From a virus (taxonomy: Duplodnaviria > Caudoviricetes): a stretch of DNA of 64,000 nucleotides. The stretch's first letter is position 1. Every line of letters starts with the position of its first letter. The position numbers and the translations under genes are program-made. Below the pieces are notes generated by a model, which was given only the letters and a program-made list of their open reading frames with translations, did no database searches and was not told where the DNA came from. Location of the stretch: positions 6,058 through 70,057 of IMG/VR virus record IMGVR_UViG_3300017791_000077; one strand, written 5' to 3'. Positions 5,533 through 63,189 of the stretch are shown piece by piece.

Positions 5533-6532
5533 ACCAGTCCACATCATCAGTCTCGGGGCCGGCGTCCAGAGCAGCACAATGGCGCTCATGGCGGCTGCTG
5601 GAGAGATTCAGCCAATGCCTGTCGCGGCAATCTTCGCGGACACCCAGGCCGAGCCAGAGAGCGTCTATCGGTGGCTGGACTGGCTCGAAGATCAATTGCC
5701 GTTCCCGGTGCATCGCGTGACGAAAGGAAATTTGAGTGCCGATTCTATAGTGATGAAGGTCTCAAAAGACGGACGCAGCTACATCAAAACAACCCTGCCA
5801 TACTTCACGCTTTCCGATGGAGGAGAACAGGGAAAGGTTCAGCATCGCAGTTGCACAGCAGACTACAAAATCGAACCCATAATCAAGACCGTCCGTAGGA
5901 TTGTAAATCCACGACTTGGCGTCTGGCGCAGGAAGCATCGCGGCGCGCTAAAGCAGCTTTACGCATGGAAAATTGCCAAAAACAAACCGCCATATCCGCA
6001 CGATGCTTGGCGGGAGTGTCAGTCCGATGCACTCGTTATTCAGTGGATCGGCATTTCACTCGACGAGTCGCGCCGAATGAAGGAAAGCCGCGAGCCGTGG
6101 GCAAAGCACCACTGGCCGCTAATTGACGAGCGAATGAACCGCCGGCAGTGCCTCGAATGGATGAAGGAGCACGGATTCCCGGAGCCACCGCGTTCGGCGT
6201 GTGTATTCTGCCCGTTCCACGACAATAAGGAATGGCGTCGATTGCAGACTGAGGAGCCGCAGGAATTCGAGAAGGCCGTGCAGTTCGAGAAGGCCGTGCA
6301 GTTCGAGAAGGCCGTGCAGTTCGAGAAGGCGCACACGGATAACTTCGCCAGCACGCCGTTCCTGCACCGCTCCTGTAAGCCGCTCGACACAATCGACTTC
6401 CGCAGCGACATCGAGCGCGGCCAGAAGGTTTTGAGGGAGCGGCATGAGCACGAGACGAAAAATCCTCGATTACTGGACCGAAGTGAAGCGCGTCGTGGGC
6501 GATCAGGTGAAGGTCACGACCTGCTGCTGTAA
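5516..6532 (+). CDS. PAPS-reductase-like (adenine nucleotide alpha-hydrolase family) protein
   Basis: ISLGAGVQSS PP-loop, FADT, CTADYKIEPI, WIGIS.DE..R, WPLI, RSACVFCPF. Confidence 0.85.
   Translation: MSDSNEPVHIISLGAGVQSSTMALMAAAGEIQPMPVAAIFADTQAEPESVYRWLDWLEDQLPFPVHRVTKGNLSADSIVMKVSKDGRSYIKTTLPYFTLSDGGEQGKVQHRSCTADYKIEPIIKTVRRIVNPRLGVWRRKHRGALKQLYAWKIAKNKPPYPHDAWRECQSDALVIQWIGISLDESRRMKESREPWAKHHWPLIDERMNRRQCLEWMKEHGFPEPPRSACVFCPFHDNKEWRRLQTEEPQEFEKAVQFEKAVQFEKAVQFEKAHTDNFASTPFLHRSCKPLDTIDFRSDIERGQKVLRERHEHETKNPRLLDRSEARRGRSGEGHDLLL
6266..6330 (+). repeat. 18-bp tandem repeat TTCGAGAAGGCCGTGCAG (about 3.6 copies; FEKAVQ)
   Basis: Perfect in-frame tandem copies. Confidence 0.95.
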
Positions 6533-6620: not shown

Positions 6621-7102
6621 TCCGATTTGATGTCCCAGGCCGGCCCCAGCCCCGCGGCAGCAAGCGAGCCTTTCTCCTGAAGACCGGACGGACCATCGTG
6701 ACGGACGATAACCCGAAGTCGAAGTCGTGGATGGAAGTAATCCAGGTGACGGCGCTGAACGCGATGAATGAGGACGGTCGCGGCACTTGGAGGGCGAAGC
6801 TCTTGGACGGCCCGATCCGCCTCGAAGTGGCGTTTTATTTCGCGCGTCCGAAGGGGCATTTCGGGAAGCGCGGATTGAAGCCGAGCGCCCCGGTTCATCA
6901 CACGACGCGGCCCGACACGACGAAGCTCCTGCGCGGGCTGGAGGACGCACTGAAGGGCATCTGCTGGCGAGACGATTCGCAGGTGTGTTCGCAGACAGCC
7001 ACGAAGGAATACGGCGATTACAATCATTCTGTGGTGACGATTGTGGAGTTGCCGGAGATTGGTTTGCGTGACGGGGCGGTCGAGCTTGAGGAGCAGGCGT
7101 GA
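6617..7102 (+). CDS. rusA: RusA-family Holliday junction resolvase
   Basis: VPG.PQPRGSK; RPDTTKLLRGLEDALKGICWRDDSQV. Confidence 0.93.
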   Translation: MIRFDVPGRPQPRGSKRAFLLKTGRTIVTDDNPKSKSWMEVIQVTALNAMNEDGRGTWRAKLLDGPIRLEVAFYFARPKGHFGKRGLKPSAPVHHTTRPDTTKLLRGLEDALKGICWRDDSQVCSQTATKEYGDYNHSVVTIVELPEIGLRDGAVELEEQA

Positions 7103-7835: not shown

Positions 7836-8431
7836 GCGATGAATGGAGACGCGCGATACCGATGCCGCTGCCCGAAGAGAATCAGCAAGTCGAGTGGGAT
7901 TACGGCAACGGCAAGGTCGAGCGCGGGACATTCTCTAAAAGCTGGTTCCATTACGAGAACGGCACGGCGTCCTGCCACTACTCAAATGTGCGCGGCTGGC
8001 GTCCGCTGCCGCATCCGAAAGCCGAGCTGCCGGAGTTCGTGAAAGCGCAGGTCGTTGATGAACGGTTCGGAGACAAGGGATTCGTCTATGTCCGCGACCT
8101 TCTCGCCATGTTCGACACCACCAAAATCCCTCACCTCGCGGTAGTCGAGAAGCCTCCCGAAGAAGACGAACTTCCGAAATACAAGGAGCATCTGCGGGCG
8201 CTCGCGGAGGAACTTAATGCGAAGCTGAAAGAATTGAACGCTGTTCGGGCGCAACTGAAAGCCGAGAGAGAGCACGTGAAATCGCGGCTGATGATATGCG
8301 GCGAGAATGTGGCGAAATGGGCCGCAACAGTGAACGCGCCTGCGACTCAGCTCGTCATTGACGATTGGGAAAAAGCGAAACATGAATACCGCGCTCTCAC
8401 CCAGTCGTCCGATGCCCAGGAGACACAATGA
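7832..8431 (+). CDS. Hypothetical protein with C-terminal coiled coil
   Basis: ATGA coupling; heptad-rich C-terminus. Confidence 0.65.
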   Translation: MSDEWRRAIPMPLPEENQQVEWDYGNGKVERGTFSKSWFHYENGTASCHYSNVRGWRPLPHPKAELPEFVKAQVVDERFGDKGFVYVRDLLAMFDTTKIPHLAVVEKPPEEDELPKYKEHLRALAEELNAKLKELNAVRAQLKAEREHVKSRLMICGENVAKWAATVNAPATQLVIDDWEKAKHEYRALTQSSDAQETQ

Positions 8432-8700: not shown

Positions 8701-8927
8701 CTGGATTGACGGAATCTTCAAAGATGACCGCCTCAACTTTTATACAAGCATCGAGCTTATGTCGCATGTCATCCGCGAGCACTTCTGGAAAGCGGCGCTG
8801 TGCCCTATATGCGATGGAGAGGGGCAGGTTCACATGAAGGGATACTCCGCGGACTGCCCTGACTGCCACGGCCGCGGCTTCATCCTCCCCGAAACAAGAC
8901 AAGGAGATCAGGCCGATGCCCGCTGAC
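8686..8927 (+). repeat. 16-bp direct repeat GCCGATGCCCGCTGAC at two consecutive gene junctions
   Basis: Copies at 8686-8701 and 8912-8927, each holding ATG and an overlapping TGA. Confidence 0.9.
8690..8926 (+). CDS. DnaJ-type Zn-finger small protein
   Basis: RBS AGGAG; CPICDGEG, CPDCHGRG. Confidence 0.7.
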   Translation: MPADWIDGIFKDDRLNFYTSIELMSHVIREHFWKAALCPICDGEGQVHMKGYSADCPDCHGRGFILPETRQGDQADAR

Positions 8928-9461
8928 CAGAGCGACAAGCCGAGCGAGTGCCCGAAGTGCCCAAACTGCGGATTTCTAATCGTTGGTCCGCTGGCATTTG
9001 AAGACGCGACGACACTGAGAGAATTTCAAGAGGCCGAAGAGAAGCCGTATTGGGACGCGAAGGTGGCCGAGTTGGAACGCGAGAACACCTTGCTCTGGGA
9101 AATGCTACACGTCAGCATCCCAGTTGAGCGATTGTCCGATCCGAAATGGAAAAACAGATACCAGAAGTGGACCAACTCCGACATCGCCGCCCGGCTGCGA
9201 ATTGAAGAAACGAAAGGGGGAGTGATGAAAGCGAAAGATCAATTCAGCCTGAAGCATCGACGGGCGGCAAAATCTCTGCACGAAGAATATTCCACGCGGC
9301 CGTGGTTTCAGGCTGTGGGACTGGGAGAGAAAGACGGGAAGCCTGCTCTGTATCTTTACCTCCTGCGAAACTCGAAAGAAGCAAAAGAGATCACCGAGTA
9401 TTCGGGATTCCCGGTCATCGCCGAGAAGATCGGTCCAATCATGCCGCTAGGGAGCTATTAA
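8916..9461 (+). CDS. Hypothetical protein (CPKCPNCG N-terminus; possible internal start MKAKDQF)
   Basis: RBS AAGGAG; internal AAAGGGGGAG-spaced ATG near 9225. Confidence 0.6.
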   Translation: MPADQSDKPSECPKCPNCGFLIVGPLAFEDATTLREFQEAEEKPYWDAKVAELERENTLLWEMLHVSIPVERLSDPKWKNRYQKWTNSDIAARLRIEETKGGVMKAKDQFSLKHRRAAKSLHEEYSTRPWFQAVGLGEKDGKPALYLYLLRNSKEAKEITEYSGFPVIAEKIGPIMPLGSY

Positions 9462-10094: not shown

Positions 10095-10152
10095 CCGAGG
10101 CATTTCAGAATTCATAACGCCAATGCCCGCCCGGCGCACGGAAGGAGCGACG

Positions 10153-10314
10153 ATGCCACGAATCGTGAAGACCCCACGGAGCGGGGACGTGTTGATAATC
10201 GGCGACGTGGTTATCAAGTGCCGCAAGCCGAAACGCAGGCGGGCGCGGCTCGCCATGACGATCAATACGCCGGCCGGAATCGAAGTGCGGCGCGTGCGGA
10301 AAAGTCGGTCTTGA
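10153..10314 (+). CDS. CsrA/RsmA-like RNA-binding protein
   Basis: RBS AAGGAG; 53 aa; RSGDVLIIGD.V.I....R..MTINTPAGIEVRR parallels CsrA RRVGETLMIGD...VRIGVNAPKEVSVHR. Confidence 0.6.
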   Translation: MPRIVKTPRSGDVLIIGDVVIKCRKPKRRRARLAMTINTPAGIEVRRVRKSRS

Positions 10315-34587: not shown

Positions 34588-35729
34588 GATGTCGCATTCG
34601 TAATGTCGTAGTATTGCGGGACTCGACGCCAGAACCGGACGCCTTCCGGCTTGCGGTCGAACGAGCGGTTGTCGGCTTCCATCGCCTGCTGAAGCGCTGC
34701 CTGATACACCTGATTCAAGGCCGGCACGTCAGCCCGTCTCTGGATCGTTCCCAGTTCCATCTCGCACTTGCGCAGGAAGGCCGAGTACATCGCCCCGGAT
34801 TCGATGTCGATCGGGTCGCTGATCTCGTATTTGGCTGCCGAAGAAATGTCGGAGTCGAACGCCTGATCCACGCCGATGCCCGTGGCACTTGTGTACGACG
34901 TGATGATCCGCTGATTCACGAAGGGGTTCGAGCCATCCGTTCCTGTGGGGACTGCGGTCGCTGTGCCCTGCCGGATGACGCAGCCGATCATGGCGCTCGT
35001 GAACACCGTCGAGGCCCCGGTGACGGTCGTTCCGCTAGAGGTGATCGTCCCCGTGGTGTACGACGGCGTGAGCAATGGACGCGGCCGGCGGTGGTACATG
35101 TAGTCGTACTGGTAGACCGCGTCGGGCGGCAGATACAGGCGGATCGCCATCGTTCCCACGTAATGCGGGTCGCTGGTGATCGTGTAGTAGCGCGGCAGCG
35201 TGGGCATCGTGTTGTAGAGCCGCATCGCCACGAAGTCGTTCGGCTCCATGTATTCGAGCGTGATGTTCCGGCTGGAGTCCTTGATCGTGCCGATTTCGAG
35301 GAAGTCCACGGGCAGGGGATACGTGTCCCGCCACAGCCGGTAGCTCGTTCCGGCCGCGATGTCTGCGCCGGGGTTGTTGTTCACCGAGAGCGTGATCTGT
35401 GTGTCGCTGTCGCGGGAGGCGACGGGGTACTCGACGCCCGATGCCTGAAACGTGCCGAACGCCGCCCATGACGGGAACGTGCCGCTGTCGAGCGTGATGG
35501 CGCGCGTCGAGTTCGTGTAGGTGATCGTGCCGGTGCTGTAGTAGGCGACCGTGCTCAATCGCCCACGGCCGATGAAGTAGTTCCAGCGGCGGGTGTTGGC
35601 GATGTCCCGGTAGGCCGATTCGACGGCACGGCGGACCTTGCGGAGCGTCTGCGCGTCGGTCGTGGCGCTGCCGCACCAGTCAAGGAGGCTGGCTTGAACG
35701 TCGCTGGCGGTGTAGAGGGAGGTCAGCAT
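34584..35729 (-). CDS. Head-tail adaptor / tail tubular protein A-like
   Basis: RAVESAYRDIAN..RW, YPLPVDFLEI, PRYYTI, IRLYLPPDAVY. Confidence 0.75.
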   Translation of the reverse strand: MLTSLYTASDVQASLLDWCGSATTDAQTLRKVRRAVESAYRDIANTRRWNYFIGRGRLSTVAYYSTGTITYTNSTRAITLDSGTFPSWAAFGTFQASGVEYPVASRDSDTQITLSVNNNPGADIAAGTSYRLWRDTYPLPVDFLEIGTIKDSSRNITLEYMEPNDFVAMRLYNTMPTLPRYYTITSDPHYVGTMAIRLYLPPDAVYQYDYMYHRRPRPLLTPSYTTGTITSSGTTVTGASTVFTSAMIGCVIRQGTATAVPTGTDGSNPFVNQRIITSYTSATGIGVDQAFDSDISSAAKYEISDPIDIESGAMYSAFLRKCEMELGTIQRRADVPALNQVYQAALQQAMEADNRSFDRKPEGVRFWRRVPQYYDITNATS

Positions 35730-56697: not shown

Positions 56698-57031
56698 AAT
56701 CACCCCCGAAAGCCATCGGTATGTCGGCATGTGGAGGCCGCCTCTGGAGAGCCTAACGCACAAGGATGTCCCGGTCGAGCAGTTGTTCTGCCCGTGCGGG
56801 GCTGCGGAATGGGAAGTGCGATGGGGAATCATCTGGCACCACAACGCGAAGATGTCACGGACCGAGCGCGTCACTGGAGAATTCAAGAGAGAGTTCGTGG
56901 ATCACTACCTCGCCGGCCACTTCGACACGCCCATCTACGAGCCAAAACCAATGCTGTCTGTGCAGTTCCCGACAGGCGCAAACTTCGACGACATAAAGGA
57001 TTCTGTATGCCCGACTGGCGACACCAAGTAA
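56690..57031 (+). CDS. Hypothetical protein
   Basis: RBS GAGGAGG; CPCG. Confidence 0.65.
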   Translation: MPEITPESHRYVGMWRPPLESLTHKDVPVEQLFCPCGAAEWEVRWGIIWHHNAKMSRTERVTGEFKREFVDHYLAGHFDTPIYEPKPMLSVQFPTGANFDDIKDSVCPTGDTK

Positions 57032-57255
57032 GCAGCGCTGAGTGGCGATGGCATCCGGTTCTCGGCGAGCACGGCTACATCGAGACGATTGAGGCCGCTA
57101 CGAAGCAGGACGATGGATCAACCGCGTTCCTAACGTTCGCAATTCTGGACCGCGGCGTCGGACATGACGTGGCCCGCGAGATCGTCGAGTCCCACAACGC
57201 GAGGCTGGCAGAGCGAGTTATCGCCAGTCTTGAACTCGACAAGCTGCATAGCTGA
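57007..57255 (+). CDS. Hypothetical protein
   Basis: A.EIVESHN motif; start uncertain. Confidence 0.5.
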   Translation: MPDWRHQVSSAEWRWHPVLGEHGYIETIEAATKQDDGSTAFLTFAILDRGVGHDVAREIVESHNARLAERVIASLELDKLHS

Positions 57256-57936
57256 AACCAGCTACGACGCTCTCCTGCATGCCCATCCACTCGCGCACAC
57301 CCGAACAGCCATCTCCACGCTCCCGACGCGCCAGTGAGGCGTATAGAGCGCTACGCAGCTTGCCAGAGTTGGAACCGGGTAAAACTCGCGGTGGAGGATA
57401 TACCTCTTAGCAGTCCAGCCTGGGGGGCCGGGCCCGGCGTCTCGGGCAGCCCGAGCCTTCCAGAAGCCGGCAGAATAGCCCATAATATGCGTGAAAACAA
57501 CGATTATTCAAGTCCCCCACACGGGACTTGACTTTCGCTCGTCTTACGCTGATGACTGGCAGTAAGTCATTGCAGCGTAGGGGGATGGCTCAGGATGTGG
57601 GGGGATTAGAGCTGGAAGAGAGGGAGAATTGCGGGGGAATGGCGTAGGATAGACCACCAGGGAGACCACCCCTCGCCTCTCCCCTTCCCTGCGGTCGTCG
57701 CCAGGATTGCGGCCGGATTCCTGGCTTCGATTCGTTTTCTCTCATTATATGTGCCATTTGCCAGTTTTCAACGCACCAGGATCGCATTAGACGCACTGCG
57801 AGGAGCCGGTACGGCTCAATTCCATACCCCTACGTCTGACGATTCGTTGCCTATTTCCAGAATAAGGCGTAATGTCTTAGCGCTTTTGATGACTTTGGCA
57901 CGATATTCTTACCTTAAGTAGATGTAGAGGCGACGA
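57256..57936. other. About 680-bp non-coding control region (terminus, origin or early promoters)
   Basis: No convincing ORF; hairpins TCAAGTCCC/GGGACTTGA and TACGCTG/CAGCGTA; G-run tract; AT-richer 3' part. Confidence 0.6.
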
Positions 57937-58026
57937 ATGAAAGTCGCCTGGAACTTGCCCCTGCTGACTGCCGGAACTTGCCAAATATCCTGCCAGTCAG
58001 CGCGTAATCTCTTGCAGGAGAGAATC

Positions 58027-58194
58027 ATGCACGTGCATTGTCAGAAGCTCGGAAGGCGCCCAGCAATCGACAAGCTCTATTGTTGCCGATACGGCCGGAT
58101 GATCGTCAATTGTGCGGGACAGGTCTATTGCGGAGGGACGCAGATTAGCCGCGCGTACGCCGCAAGGCAGCTCCTCGCATGGCGTAAAGCCTGA
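58027..58194 (+). CDS. Small early protein
   Basis: RBS AGGAGAG. Confidence 0.65.
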   Translation: MHVHCQKLGRRPAIDKLYCCRYGRMIVNCAGQVYCGGTQISRAYAARQLLAWRKA

Positions 58195-58283
58195 CGCGCC
58201 TACCTTACCGCTCATTCTCTGGGAGTGAGCGGACCTGTAGGCGTTTCCCGTCTGTTTACCCTCTGTTTTAAGGAACTTGCCCA

Positions 58284-58499
58284 ATGAAAACCGAGCAGAC
58301 ATTGATCGAACAGCTGGAATCTCTGGTTGACTCGAATTCCGTGGCCCGCGTGCTCGAATGCTTGTCGGATGTGTGCCACTTGAAGGCCCAGCACATCGAA
58401 GAAAACTGGCAGGATGAAGCGCTTGCAAAGCTCTGGACTAAGGCAGGCGTGAAGATCAATCAGCTCCAAGACCGCATCCATCGGGACTACGGCATCTGA
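58284..58499 (+). CDS. Small early protein
   Basis: AAGGAACTTGCCCA-ATG; L.E....K..H..ENWQD..LAK.W. Confidence 0.8.
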   Translation: MKTEQTLIEQLESLVDSNSVARVLECLSDVCHLKAQHIEENWQDEALAKLWTKAGVKINQLQDRIHRDYGI

Positions 58500-58582
58500 C
58501 GCGCCACCCGCCTCCCCTCTCGAATGTCGGGAGGGCTGGTATGGCGGCGTTTCATATCCTCTTGAATGAAGGGAACTTGCTG

Positions 58583-58792
58583 ATGGACCGTCAGACGTGG
58601 TTTACGATTGCGGTTTTCGTGGGCGCCGGCAAAGGCGACTACGGCAGCGAATGGGCTGTTGCGAAAGAGGGAAACATGAGCCGGCAGGCTGCCGAAGGAC
58701 TCTTGAATCAATTCGCCATGCAGTACCGATCGCGCCTCTTTCGCGGGAAGATGCTCGGTAAGCTGGTACGCGAAGCCGGGAGGGTAGCATGA
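58583..58792 (+). CDS. Small early protein
   Basis: AAGGGAACTTGCTG-ATG. Confidence 0.7.
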   Translation: MDRQTWFTIAVFVGAGKGDYGSEWAVAKEGNMSRQAAEGLLNQFAMQYRSRLFRGKMLGKLVREAGRVA

Positions 58793-59433
58793 CACTCGCC
58801 GACAAATACCGCCCGCGCTCCTGGTCCGATGTAGTCGGCCAACCCAAAGCGCTTGCCATAATCGAATCCCTGCGCAAGCGCGGTCTCGCCGGCCGGGCAG
58901 TCTGGATTGCCGGCAAGAGCGGGACCGGCAAGACGACGATTGCCGAATTGCTCGCAGCAGAGATTGCTCACGAGTGCTGCATTGAACGCTACACGGCCCG
59001 CACGATGACTCCGGCCGATGTGCTCGCCATACGCCGCGGTCTCGCGTTCAAGGGGATGGAACGCGGCGGCCGGGCTGTCATCGTGAATGAATCGCACGGA
59101 CTCAGGAGCGACACGGAAGAGACGTTGCTTGACGCTCTGGATAAAGATGCAATCCCGCCTCACGCGCTCTGGATCTTTACTACGACCGTCGATGGACAGG
59201 CTGAGTTTTGCTTCGATAACAATGACGCTTTGCCCCTGTTATCACGCTGTTTGCGCATTGATCTGGCGCAAAGGGACCTGGCGAAAGCCTTTGCCGAACG
59301 TGCCCGCGAGATTGCCCAGCTCGAAGGGTTGGACGGTCAACCGATCGAACGATACGTGAAGCTGGCGAATGAATGCAAATCGAACTTACGGGCCATGCTG
59401 TCGGCGATAGAGGGAGGGCGAATGTTGTCCTGA
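58789..59433 (+). CDS. Clamp-loader-clade AAA+ ATPase (DnaX/RFC/RarA-like, N-terminal module only)
   Basis: LADKYRPRSWSDVVGQ, GKSGTGKTT, IVNESH, FTTT, LLSRC, LRAML. Confidence 0.88.
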   Translation: MTLADKYRPRSWSDVVGQPKALAIIESLRKRGLAGRAVWIAGKSGTGKTTIAELLAAEIAHECCIERYTARTMTPADVLAIRRGLAFKGMERGGRAVIVNESHGLRSDTEETLLDALDKDAIPPHALWIFTTTVDGQAEFCFDNNDALPLLSRCLRIDLAQRDLAKAFAERAREIAQLEGLDGQPIERYVKLANECKSNLRAMLSAIEGGRMLS

Positions 59434-59511
59434 GTGTGCCCGACCACCCGGCCGTAACGTGCGGCCGGTCATCGGTTACACTTCCCGATGGTTCTTTCGA
59501 GGAGCTTGAAC

Positions 59512-59700
59512 ATGACTTACGTCTTGTGGGGAATGCCTTACTGGCTGGACAATCGAATCAAGATCATGGCTGGAACGCTGGCCGAATGCCGGAAGGCGAA
59601 AGAGCAGCGCGAACGCGAGCAATACCACGGGGCGGATGACGGTCCCGTATGGGTCGGATTGGCGATTCTGCCGAAAGGTGAATGTATCCCAGCTCGGTAA
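59512..59700 (+). CDS. Small early protein
   Basis: RBS GAGGAG. Confidence 0.7.
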   Translation: MTYVLWGMPYWLDNRIKIMAGTLAECRKAKEQREREQYHGADDGPVWVGLAILPKGECIPAR

Positions 59701-59717
59701 TTCCGCACGGATTTTTC

Positions 59718-59745
59718 TTGACAACGCCCCATCCTCAGATACGAT
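59718..59745 (+). promoter_or_regulatory. Sigma70-type promoter
   Basis: TTGACA-16 bp-TACGAT. Confidence 0.6.
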
Positions 59746-59889
59746 GACCAGCGTTGAGGAACTTGCCAAACATGGAACTTGCCCCCATCAACCCCGTATT
59801 TCTCACGCTGGCGCGGCTCTTGCGTAGTTCTGGCAAGTTCCGCGCAGGGCTGCTGCCAGCGTGAGATTATTTGAAAGGAACTTGCCCCA

Positions 59890-60117
59890 ATGACTTTGCA
59901 ATTTCTTCGCCCAGGCTCGCGCTTCCGCCTGACCGAAGCCCCCGCTGTGACAGGCACGCTGGTAAAGTGCTGCGAGGGCTGCGCCGTTGTCGAGCTGGAC
60001 GGCCAGGAGCGCGTTTGCGACTTCGAGACGATCAATCACGAATGGGTACGGATTGTGCGCTCAGGGAAGCGCAGGACCACGATAACGAAACTCGTAGAGA
60101 TTGAGAGGATAGCATGA
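59890..60117 (+). CDS. Small SH3-like beta protein
   Basis: AAGGAACTTGCCCCA-ATG; L.PG.RF......TG.LV......AVV. Confidence 0.75.
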   Translation: MTLQFLRPGSRFRLTEAPAVTGTLVKCCEGCAVVELDGQERVCDFETINHEWVRIVRSGKRRTTITKLVEIERIA

Positions 60118-60509
60118 CCACGACAGCGCGACTGCACGATCTGGCGAAGGGTTTGCGGATTACCGTCAAGTACGGGGCGAACCTCGATTACGAGAAGCAG
60201 GACGAATGGCAGCAGCGGGCGCACGGCTACCACTGCACGCTGAAATACAAAGGCCGGCAGTACTCGTTTGACTTCTGGCAGGGCGAGGCGATCACTGAAG
60301 AACCGACAGCCGAAGGCACGCTCGAATGCCTGCTGTCTGACGCGCAGGCCGGCTCTCAGGACTTCGAGGAGTTCTGCGGAGACATGGGATACGACACGGA
60401 TTCACGCAAGGCAGAACGAACGTGGAAGGCTTGCCAGAAGGTCAGCGAAGGGATGCAGCGGCTTCTGGGTGACGACTACGAGACGTTCCTGTATTCCGAT
60501 CGCAATTGA
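60114..60509 (+). CDS. Conserved phage early protein
   Basis: RQYSFDFWQG, P.....LECLLSDA, FEEFC.DMGYD.DSRKA...WKAC. Confidence 0.85.
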   Translation: MTTTARLHDLAKGLRITVKYGANLDYEKQDEWQQRAHGYHCTLKYKGRQYSFDFWQGEAITEEPTAEGTLECLLSDAQAGSQDFEEFCGDMGYDTDSRKAERTWKACQKVSEGMQRLLGDDYETFLYSDRN

Positions 60510-61663: not shown

Positions 61664-62605
61664 CTACGCCGCCCGTGGCGGCTCGTCGGGTTGGCCCGGT
61701 CGGAACAGCAGGTCACTCGCCTGCTGCTGCCCGCTGATCTGCGGCACGCGATAATGCTGCTCGTAGATTCGGCGGGACGAATGCCGTAGAAGCGCCGTCG
61801 GGTCTCCTCCGGCCGCCTCTGCGAAACTCGCGCCCGTCCGCCGCATGCAGTGAAAGCTGTGCCAGCGATCAGTTGGCAATCCCCATTTCTCCCGGAGCAC
61901 GCGGTAGCGCGTATGCAGGTACTCGCCGCGCTTGTGCCAGGGGAACACGCAGTCATCCGTCGCGATGGCGTGCATTTCGCGCAATAGCGTGGTCGTGTCA
62001 GCGTGGAACTTGACGGTTGAATCTTCCTTGCGGCCTTTGCGGACTTCAGCCGGGAAATAACCGTAGGCCCGCGGCTGGTCCAAGTCCGTCACGCCGTCCC
62101 ATCGCAGGCGCCGGGCAGCGCCGATGCGCTCCAGGGAATCGTACATGACGCAGTGAAGGCCGGTCCACCACAACGAGGACGGCACGCCGCAGACGGTCCC
62201 ACGCTGCGCCGCGCACATCTTCCACAGCTCGTTGAGCTGGGCCTGCGTCCACCCGATCGGCGTGCGCTTCGGCTCGTGGAAGCTCGGCACGTCCGGCCAG
62301 GTCGAGACCACGCCCTTACGTGCCAGGAAGTTCCACAAGGCCACGAGCTGGTCCCGCGTCTTGTTGGCGGTCCTAGTGGATAAGCCGCGCTCGCCGACGA
62401 TCCATTCCATGCAGGCCATGACGGCGTTATCGCACAGATCCTGAATCGTCGGCTCGCGGCCAAGAAAGTCCCGGAAGTATGCGAACGTGAAGCCGTACAG
62501 TCGCACCGTCTCGGGACTTTTTCCGAAGAGTCTTTTGGGGCGATAGAGCAAATCGAAATGGGAACGAAGGGTCGAATCGAGTTTGCCGCTGGACGTGTCT
62601 TTCAT
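61664..62605 (-). CDS. int: Tyrosine recombinase / phage integrase
   Basis: RBS GGGAG; SAM-like N-domain (SPETVRLY), R (ERIG), K, FHCMRR, LRHS, Y (EQHY). Confidence 0.9.
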   Translation of the reverse strand: MKDTSSGKLDSTLRSHFDLLYRPKRLFGKSPETVRLYGFTFAYFRDFLGREPTIQDLCDNAVMACMEWIVGERGLSTRTANKTRDQLVALWNFLARKGVVSTWPDVPSFHEPKRTPIGWTQAQLNELWKMCAAQRGTVCGVPSSLWWTGLHCVMYDSLERIGAARRLRWDGVTDLDQPRAYGYFPAEVRKGRKEDSTVKFHADTTTLLREMHAIATDDCVFPWHKRGEYLHTRYRVLREKWGLPTDRWHSFHCMRRTGASFAEAAGGDPTALLRHSSRRIYEQHYRVPQISGQQQASDLLFRPGQPDEPPRAA

Positions 62606-62931
62606 GGCCGAACTCCCAAAGATTCGTGTCTTGTGGTGCAGCCGTCCCTGCGTAAGCGCGTCTCCTTCGCTCCTAGATTTCCGTTCTCGCTTCCGAATTT
62701 CCAGAGAGAAAAATCCCTCCTCGCACGCTTTCAAACTTTCCCGGCATGGAAAAATTGAATGCGAAAACTTTGCGGTTTGTGGTGTTCCCGTCCCGCTCGC
62801 AATCGTGTCCCCGCCAATAGATTTTTGCTGTGTTGCTGAGGGGAGTTGAGTTCGCCGCAGATGCGGGAAAGCCGCGAGGTTCCCGGCCAGATCAAGCTAC
62901 GTCTCTGGTTGCACATCTGCGGTTTTTGGTG

Positions 62932-62973: not shown

Positions 62974-63189
62974 GTGGCAATCGAGGCAAACGTGAAAATG
63001 TTGACGACGACTGATGTGGCTGGACTGCTGGGCGTGAAGCCCGACACGGTGCGAAAGTATGTGCAACGAAAGCAAATCGTTCCGTTCCGCATGATCGGAA
63101 CCGCGCACCTGTTCAAAGAATCCGAGTGCAAGCGATTCGCCCGCGTGCGCCGCAAACGCGGAAACCCGCAGTTTTCCAACGGGAAATAG
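62974..63189 (+). CDS. Excisionase-like/MerR-type HTH (HTH_17) protein
   Basis: LTTTDVAGLLGVKPDTVRKYV....I...MIG..HLF; divergent from the integrase. Confidence 0.85.
   Translation: MAIEANVKMLTTTDVAGLLGVKPDTVRKYVQRKQIVPFRMIGTAHLFKESECKRFARVRRKRGNPQFSNGK

Follow-up and report, generated by a model that had tools for sequence, protein, structure and literature searches.

A private ribosome-binding-site motif and its hairpin-displayed complement in a temperate phage and its relatives

How a phage might address a chosen set of its own genes through their ribosome-binding sites (RBSs) is the question raised by a short repeated sequence in a member of the Caudoviricetes. The stretch of DNA analyzed (the window) comprises 64,000 nucleotides, bases 6058-70057 of the 70,057-bp IMG/VR virus record IMGVR_UViG_3300017791_000077, which CheckV classifies as complete; the phage is referred to here as W. 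The element in question is a 10-nt motif, M (GGAACTTGCC), whose forward copies supply the Shine-Dalgarno (SD) sequence of several early genes and whose single reverse complement (anti-M) lies in the apical loop region of a long hairpin. The anti-M loop is considered, with a probability of roughly 0.65, to be an anti-SD RNA that pairs with the private RBS motif and brings about the coordinated shut-down of an early and replication gene set. Positions refer to the window, features lie on the + strand unless stated otherwise, loci and records of relatives carry L and G labels (G000 being the whole record of W), and all folding and duplex energies are predictions.

Motif M and its reverse complement in phage W

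M is present in seven exact copies, six of them on the + strand (57950, 57973, 58272, 59758, 59774, and 59877) and one, the sole reverse complement, on the - strand at 59832. A further + strand copy at 58572 matches at 9/10 positions, giving seven forward copies and one reversed copy in all. Throughout the 70,057-bp record, the exact 10-mer is restricted to the same seven sites, all within 57950-59886. A uniform-base model predicts about 0.12 occurrences per 64 kb on both strands. With at most one mismatch allowed, 21 matches are found, against 4.6 ± 2.2 in 100 dinucleotide shuffles, 0 of which reach 21; the remaining 13 one-mismatch matches are scattered and background-like. A preliminary description of the locus had reported seven exact copies and one 9/10 copy within about 2 kb where about 0.1 would be expected, and this clustering is confirmed by the counts, the shuffles, and the whole-record search.

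Three of the forward copies constitute the SD and spacer of a gene, as the preliminary description had also recognized. These are 58272..58281 (gene 58284-58499, 71 aa), the 9/10 copy 58572..58581 (gene 58583-58792), and 59877..59886 (gene 59890-60117, 75 aa), which end 2, 1, and 3 nt before the respective ATGs. The other four form two tandem pairs. The first pair (57950..57959 and 57973..57982) is located in the 5' leader of gene 58027, where its upstream copy does not serve as the RBS. In an RNAfold prediction of 57921-58035, this copy is preceded directly on its 5' side by a small hairpin (57928..57949) and is largely accessible (mean P(unpaired) 0.75), and the second copy occupies the apical part of a hairpin at 57963-58001. 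The second pair (59758..59767 and 59774..59783) belongs to the leader that also contains the antisense copy.

Just upstream of this pair is the leader's sigma70-like promoter (TTGACA-16-TACGAT, 59718..59745), found by a promoter scan; comparable hexamers in the relative L016 were read by eye, without a promoter scan there. The tandem pair starts 13 nt past the -10 hexamer, which places its two copies at about +6 and +22 of the predicted transcript. A long hairpin of 66 nt follows at 59801..59866, with 27 pairs (3 of them G-U), a predicted energy of -47 kcal/mol, and a U-rich tract behind it. Its z-score is -7.35, and 0/200 shuffles are equally stable. Owing to the G-U pairs, folding of the + strand is favored by 8.4 kcal/mol over folding of the - strand. 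The antisense copy, which appears in the + strand RNA as the reverse complement of M, lies at 59832..59841 in the apical loop region of this hairpin (mean P(unpaired) 0.71), and the RBS copy at 59877 begins 11 nt beyond the stem. The leader is thus read as sense copies at 59758/59774, antisense copy at 59832, and sense copy at the RBS at 59877. The - strand offers no start codon after 59832, so the reversed copy is not the RBS of a leftward gene. Since the predicted fold of W keeps the antisense copy in the apical loop, any duplex with a sense copy would be of the loop-to-strand kind, formed as a pseudoknot or in trans. The copy at 57973 is complementary to the antisense region over 15 nt, interrupted by one bulge (predicted energy -26 kcal/mol).

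The RBS of gene 59512-59700 (59497-59511, GGAGCTTGAA) is a degenerate form of M; with the antisense loop, it could make 8 pairs, including one G-U, and a close relative, L019, has GGAGCTTGCC at one RBS. In addition, a C/T-rich element (TTACCCT-like; TCCCATA in L110) is found 0-12 nt upstream of many motif-bearing RBSs, including W (58252-58262), L034, L061, and L110. It could act as a translation enhancer or as a -10-like promoter element; in the latter case, short-leader mRNAs would have the motif at their extreme 5' end.

Private motifs and antisense loops in relatives

Four positionally equivalent leaders, those of W, L016, L099, and L037, carry four different motifs. L016 has GAAACATCAC, with sense copies at 6967 and 6979, the antisense copy at 7032, an RBS copy at 7073 (ATG 7086), and a second tandem pair at 5751/5779. 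L099 has GAGCTTCTCAC, with sense copies at 7843 and 7854, the antisense copy at 7905, an RBS copy at 7942, and a further RBS copy at 8713. L037 has GACGACTACCA, with one sense copy at 2899, the antisense copy at 2956, an RBS copy at 2992 that overlaps the ATG, and no others. The AAA+ protein of L016 is 67% identical to that of W; the gene behind its leader is a homolog of gene 59890 (41.9% identity), and the corresponding value for the gene behind the L099 leader is 74%. A screen for the sense-antisense-sense order reduced 150 loci to 16, among which the RBS-linked layout is present only in these four phages. Five other candidates from this screen (L163, L168, L174, L182, and L066) were set aside as they look like DNA repeat arrays. 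Dense direct and inverted repeats near members of the gene 60114 family (L182:3959-4025, L163:1676-1930, and L168:3805-4040) resemble DNA operators or iterons and are a phenomenon distinct from the RBS-linked motif. A scan of IMG/VR with the tandem-pair pattern gave 8 matches, all of them unrelated coding repeats. In a MAFFT alignment of three leaders the motifs do not fall in register.

Strong hairpins (z = -4.0 to -7.4; -35 to -47 kcal/mol) carry the antisense copies of W, L016, and L099 in their apical regions. For L037, two structures compete: an 8-bp hairpin showing the antisense copy and a 13-bp cis helix in which the RBS and the AUG are sequestered, the latter being the predicted minimum-energy fold. 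The RBS copy pairs with the antisense region over 13 nt in L016 and 12 nt in L099, compared with 10 and 11 nt for the tandem copies. Such features would suit a leader switch acting in cis only, in which pairing of the antisense copy with the tandem copies upstream leaves the RBS free and its pairing with the RBS copy instead blocks it, so that gene 59890 and the genes coupled to it would be controlled and all other copies would be incidental. The order sense, antisense, sense-at-RBS is kept in all four leaders, the L037 fold is an antisense/RBS-copy helix of the expected kind, and the longer pairing of the RBS copy in L016 and L099 points the same way. However, the predicted folds of W, L016, and L099 leave the antisense copy in its hairpin loop, and the four M copies located 1.2-1.9 kb upstream in W are left unexplained, as are relatives in which the antisense hairpin follows the last early gene, 1-3 kb away from 4-7 RBS copies. 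The cis-only switch is accordingly regarded as unlikely. The either/or pairing of the 59832 copy that the preliminary description had proposed for W is not sustained by the predicted fold, and cis pairing with the RBS is predicted only in L037.

Other relatives represent a second arrangement. These further family members carry a private SD and spacer motif on 4-7 early genes, of which the AAA+ gene is often one, together with exactly one antisense copy in a hairpin loop. They include L018 (GGAGGTGCGA; antisense copy at 9189, between two + strand genes), L034 of record G001 (GGAGTTGAGAC; 7032, with a 12-pair stem and the loop within the anti-motif), L061 of record G002 (GGAGCTTAGA; 5437), L054 of record G005 (a 9-nt core; antisense copy at G005 position 34948), and L029 (8 nt; 6434, with one mismatch). 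In the whole 74.6-kb record G001, six forward copies (4 exact, 2 near-exact) accompany 1 reverse copy, and the whole 70.9-kb record G002 contains 6 forward copies and 1 reverse copy; in each, the motif is confined to one region of 4-6 kb. A three-way junction forms the antisense structure of L061 and L029, where it separates the last early gene's stop codon from a terminator-like tail; L034 has a similar junction, placed where its early genes end and facing convergent genes. Judged from the sequence, this placement would be typical of a small RNA derived from a 3' untranslated region (UTR). The antisense hairpin has two alternative placements within one phage family, the leader and the end of the early genes.

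The expected number of chance reverse complements of a 10-11-mer in a locus of 7-12 kb is about 0.01. Eight phages, no two with the same motif, all have such a reverse complement, and in all of them it lies in a hairpin loop, a recurrence beyond the reach of chance. Among loci with at least three start-associated identical 10-mers, the reverse complement was present in three true systems, and a reverse-only or complement-only control match in 0 of those. These figures bear on the possibility that M has no regulatory role, being an efficient RBS cassette spread by duplication beside a terminator hairpin that matches it by chance. The U-rich tail of the hairpin would fit a terminator, and some relatives do without any private motif; nevertheless, the same coincidence would be needed with a different 9-11-mer in seven other phages, each expected at about 0.01-0.2, which makes this explanation hardly credible.

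Motif and anti-motif change together across the relatives, which argues for RNA pairing. The core M/anti-M duplexes have predicted energies of -12 to -21 kcal/mol, and the hairpins fold better on the gene-sense strand in 7/8 cases, with 18 G-U pairs versus 6. The extension of complementarity into the flanks (the RBS copies of L016 and L099, and the copy at 57973 in W) is not predicted for a protein site. Taken together, the inverted site in a hairpin loop, the flank-specific extensions, and the strand-asymmetric stems lead M and anti-M to be read as an RNA-RNA pair. In this respect, the RNA-level anti-SD reading of the preliminary description is strengthened, as the antisense copy covaries with the motif in seven relatives and is always in a hairpin loop.

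The same features bear on a DNA-level alternative, in which M is the asymmetric site of a phage-specific repressor that blocks initiation or elongation at the tandem pairs and intergenic sites, in the manner of the stoperators bound by L5 gp71. Tandem direct copies immediately downstream of a sigma70-like promoter are what an operator would look like, and the sites are asymmetric, nearly all in one orientation, and phage-specific, as stoperators are (PMC9262239). Yet such a repressor would not account for one inverted copy placed in a hairpin loop in 8 phages, for copies locked 0-5 nt from start codons, for the flank-specific extension of complementarity, or for the strand asymmetry of the folds and their G-U pairs. 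Moreover, the copies do not extend genome-wide, and no HTH_3-type repressor gene was found in the genome, which is a weak argument as other folds exist. A purely DNA-operator role is possible for the tandem copies; as an explanation of M as a whole, the repressor site appears decidedly improbable.

A protein could also read M on the mRNA. M begins with GGA and some of its copies lie in hairpin loops, which would suit a phage CsrA homolog or a RegA-like repressor, with the tandem copies acting as a sponge and the antisense copy being secondary. A true CsrA homolog is encoded outside the window at G000:C1:1824-1979 (PF02599, E = 2e-12), and CsrA genes are also present in L016 and L112, downstream of the equivalent region. 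However, the motifs of L016, L037, and L054 and the tandem copies of L016 and L099 lack GGA, although L016 has a CsrA gene, and the covarying antisense copy is left without explanation. Sponges of the CsrB/RsmZ type present many looped GGA motifs, whereas only two tandem copies are present per leader here. Recognition by an RNA-binding protein is thus given very little credence. The CsrA sponge suggested in the preliminary description fails on the tandem copies of L016 and L099, and the open reading frame (ORF) at 10123-10314 that had been called CsrA-like has no Pfam match.

A candidate anti-Shine-Dalgarno loop and the genes around it

The anti-SD reading can be set out as a series of proposed steps. 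A + strand transcript from the promoter at 59718-59745 would carry the hairpin at 59801-59866, whose exposed loop is the exact complement of M. We infer that this RNA is made and is stable, and its U-rich tail may yield a discrete RNA of about 115 nt. The loop would pair with M (10 bp, about -16.5 kcal/mol) and block binding of the 30S ribosomal subunit. One target would be the RBS of gene 59890, which follows closely downstream, and those of genes 58284 and 58583 would be reached in trans. The loop may act in trans, in cis as a pseudoknot, or both. Blocking of the first RBS would probably silence the coupled gene too, and the clamp-loader-like gene and gene 60114 would be affected in this way via stop/start overlaps. 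The non-RBS tandem copies at the 5' ends of two leaders may provide extra pairing sites, serving either as decoys that set a threshold or as entry sites that trigger decay or termination. The regulation would be negative, and the net effect would be a coordinated shut-down or an immunity-like silencing of early and replication genes, comparable to the action of P1 c4 and P4 CI.

Several points weigh against this proposal. The modeled geometry of W would make cis pairing of the loop with the RBS copy, 11 nt past a 24-bp stem, difficult, and the action of the hairpin RNA in trans is putative. The tandem direct repeats at about +6 and +22 of the promoter resemble operator sites. The system is patchy and dispensable, given that L110, L111, L112, and L114 have no private motif and use ordinary, varied RBSs. 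Finally, generic screens for a repeated k-mer with its reverse complement are noisy at 9-10 nt, with controls nearly as frequent as matches, so the statistics rest on the specific start-associated cases.

Among the genes concerned, gene 58027..58194, the first after the tandem pair 57950/57973, encodes a Cys-rich protein of 55 aa without a family match and has its own GGAGAG RBS. The clamp-loader-like AAA+ gene at 58789..59433 was assigned by Pfam (RuvB_N/TIP49) and by PHROG (clamp loader, E = 4e-24). The stop codon of gene 58583 overlaps its start (ATGA), and because of this overlap it is probably translationally coupled to that motif-bearing gene. Its protein has about 1,600 homologs, many from contigs of about 70 kb, and one named source is a Planctomycetaceae single-cell assembly. 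Genes 59890-60117 and 60114-60509 likewise share an ATGA overlap and have no assigned function. A single homolog of gene 59890 was found outside the window. Gene 60114-60509 encodes a 131-aa member of a widespread phage family (114 protein clusters; 167 IMG/VR loci; PHROG 4273); the structural model of this protein has a pLDDT of 94.5 and no significant match in PDB (best TM about 0.25).

The + strand genes extend from about 50 kb through the right end and would continue into the left end if the genome is circular, and the - strand genes at 22-49 kb are probably structural. The phage is temperate, as indicated by an integrase gene (61664-62734, - strand) and an HTH_17 excisionase-like gene (62974-63189). 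A collection of cultured phages gave no DNA match and, at the protein level, only distant clamp-loader matches, and a scan of the window found no tRNA genes. Immediately upstream of the first tandem pair, about 900 bp (57031-57937) contain no convincing gene and include a near-consensus - strand promoter (TTGAAA-16-TATAAT, 57771-57744); gene-free stretches of 1.3-1.5 kb occupy the equivalent position in L016 and L099. This could be a regulatory or origin region or encode further non-coding RNAs. The record opens (G000:C1:1-100) with 20 bases that are found again at position 75, which suggests a short tandem repeat at its left end.

Comparison with known systems

The preliminary description had likened the layout to the RNA immunity systems of P1 (c4) and P4 (CI) while noting a different sequence, and both parts of this comparison are upheld by the site order and by the Rfam search. 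The latter returned no match at gathering score in the whole window and nothing relevant at E <= 5 in 57000-60000, so the locus is not homologous to the P1 c4/P4 CI family (C4, RF01695). In the immI region of P1, the order of elements is a1/b1, c4, a2/b2-icd-ant, where a1/b1 are the upstream target sites of c4 and a2/b2 those at the RBS of icd. The c4 antisense RNA of P1/P7 was reported by Citron and Schuster in 1990 (as cited in PMC8198154). The leader of W has a comparable construction: one predicted transcript runs from upstream target copies through the antisense copy to a final target copy that supplies the RBS of the first gene, which is small (75 aa in W) and overlaps the next. W has an antisense element with complementary sites on both sides in one transcription unit, of which the downstream site lies at an RBS, and the order is the same in L016, L099, and L037. 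Phage-private specificity and a temperate phage are further points in common. Unlike immI, W has a single 10-nt motif instead of two segments, and its antisense part is a plain long hairpin. Furthermore, the motif of W serves the RBSs of other genes and has a second tandem pair 1.2-1.9 kb away, which would give several targets.

In P4, the CI RNA pairs with seqA (upstream) and seqC (downstream) in an untranslated leader and silences replication genes; it acts by premature transcription termination and is itself processed (PMC4825925). W resembles this system in the order of complementary site, antisense RNA, and complementary site within a leader, and in a clamp-loader-like replication gene apparently coupled to a motif-bearing gene. 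It differs in having no homology to CI, and termination and RNA processing are features described for P4. If the anti-SD reading is correct, one short RNA loop would control the translation of a chosen gene set through a private address in its RBSs, and the principle of P1 c4 and P4 CI would be extended from one target to a gene set. It would also predict RNA-based immunity groups among otherwise similar temperate phages and supply synthetic translational control with natural pairs of RBS and antisense loop that are orthogonal to one another.

The stoperators of Cluster A mycobacteriophages are protein-bound DNA sites (L5 gp71) spread over the whole genome (PMC9262239). Like M, they are short, asymmetric, phage-specific, intergenic, and in one orientation relative to transcription. 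In contrast to M, they bear no fixed relation to start codons and lack a complement displayed in a hairpin, and their genome-wide distribution has no counterpart in W, where all copies lie within 2 kb.

A likeness in placement is offered by the start-associated sequence (SAS) of Cluster K mycobacteriophages, a 13-bp sequence with the consensus GGGATAGGAGCCC that is associated with extended 17-bp inverted repeats (Pope et al. 2011, PMC3203893) and whose function is still described as unknown (PMC11373665, PMC12699233). Both are asymmetric motifs with an extended SD core located a few nucleotides before the starts of non-structural genes, three in W and 4-7 in L018, L034, L061, L023, L029, and L053. 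Both also occur in one orientation with a single reversed copy that is unlinked to a gene start, as seen in W, G001, G002, and the Cluster K phage Anaya. The motif of W differs from the SAS consensus, and host phylum differs as well. Cluster K phages carry 11-19 copies over half the genome, compared with 3 RBS copies and 4 leader copies within 2 kb in W, and one SAS is common to Cluster K phages, whereas each phage here has a motif of its own. W works like an SAS system and is not a member by sequence.

In Anaya (JF704106), the single reversed SAS occupies a 10-nt hairpin loop in the gap between gp96 and gp97 (L100:44850-44900; about 59850-59900 of the record). This hairpin region has matches in 138 Cluster K records, and an alignment of nine supports both stems with compensatory changes. 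In Amgine, the homologous loop is degenerate and the SAS unchanged, so a test for covariation of loop and SAS gives no support in Cluster K, and the hairpin cannot be the sole reader of SAS there. A wider proposal, possible but doubtful at present, is that W, its relatives, and Cluster K share a general and easily re-coded phage module, in which one small RNA silences an early and replication gene set, defines the specificity of RNA-based immunity, and is the missing partner of SAS. Such a module would offer a concrete mechanism for SAS, unexplained since 2011, in the tractable mycobacteriophages.

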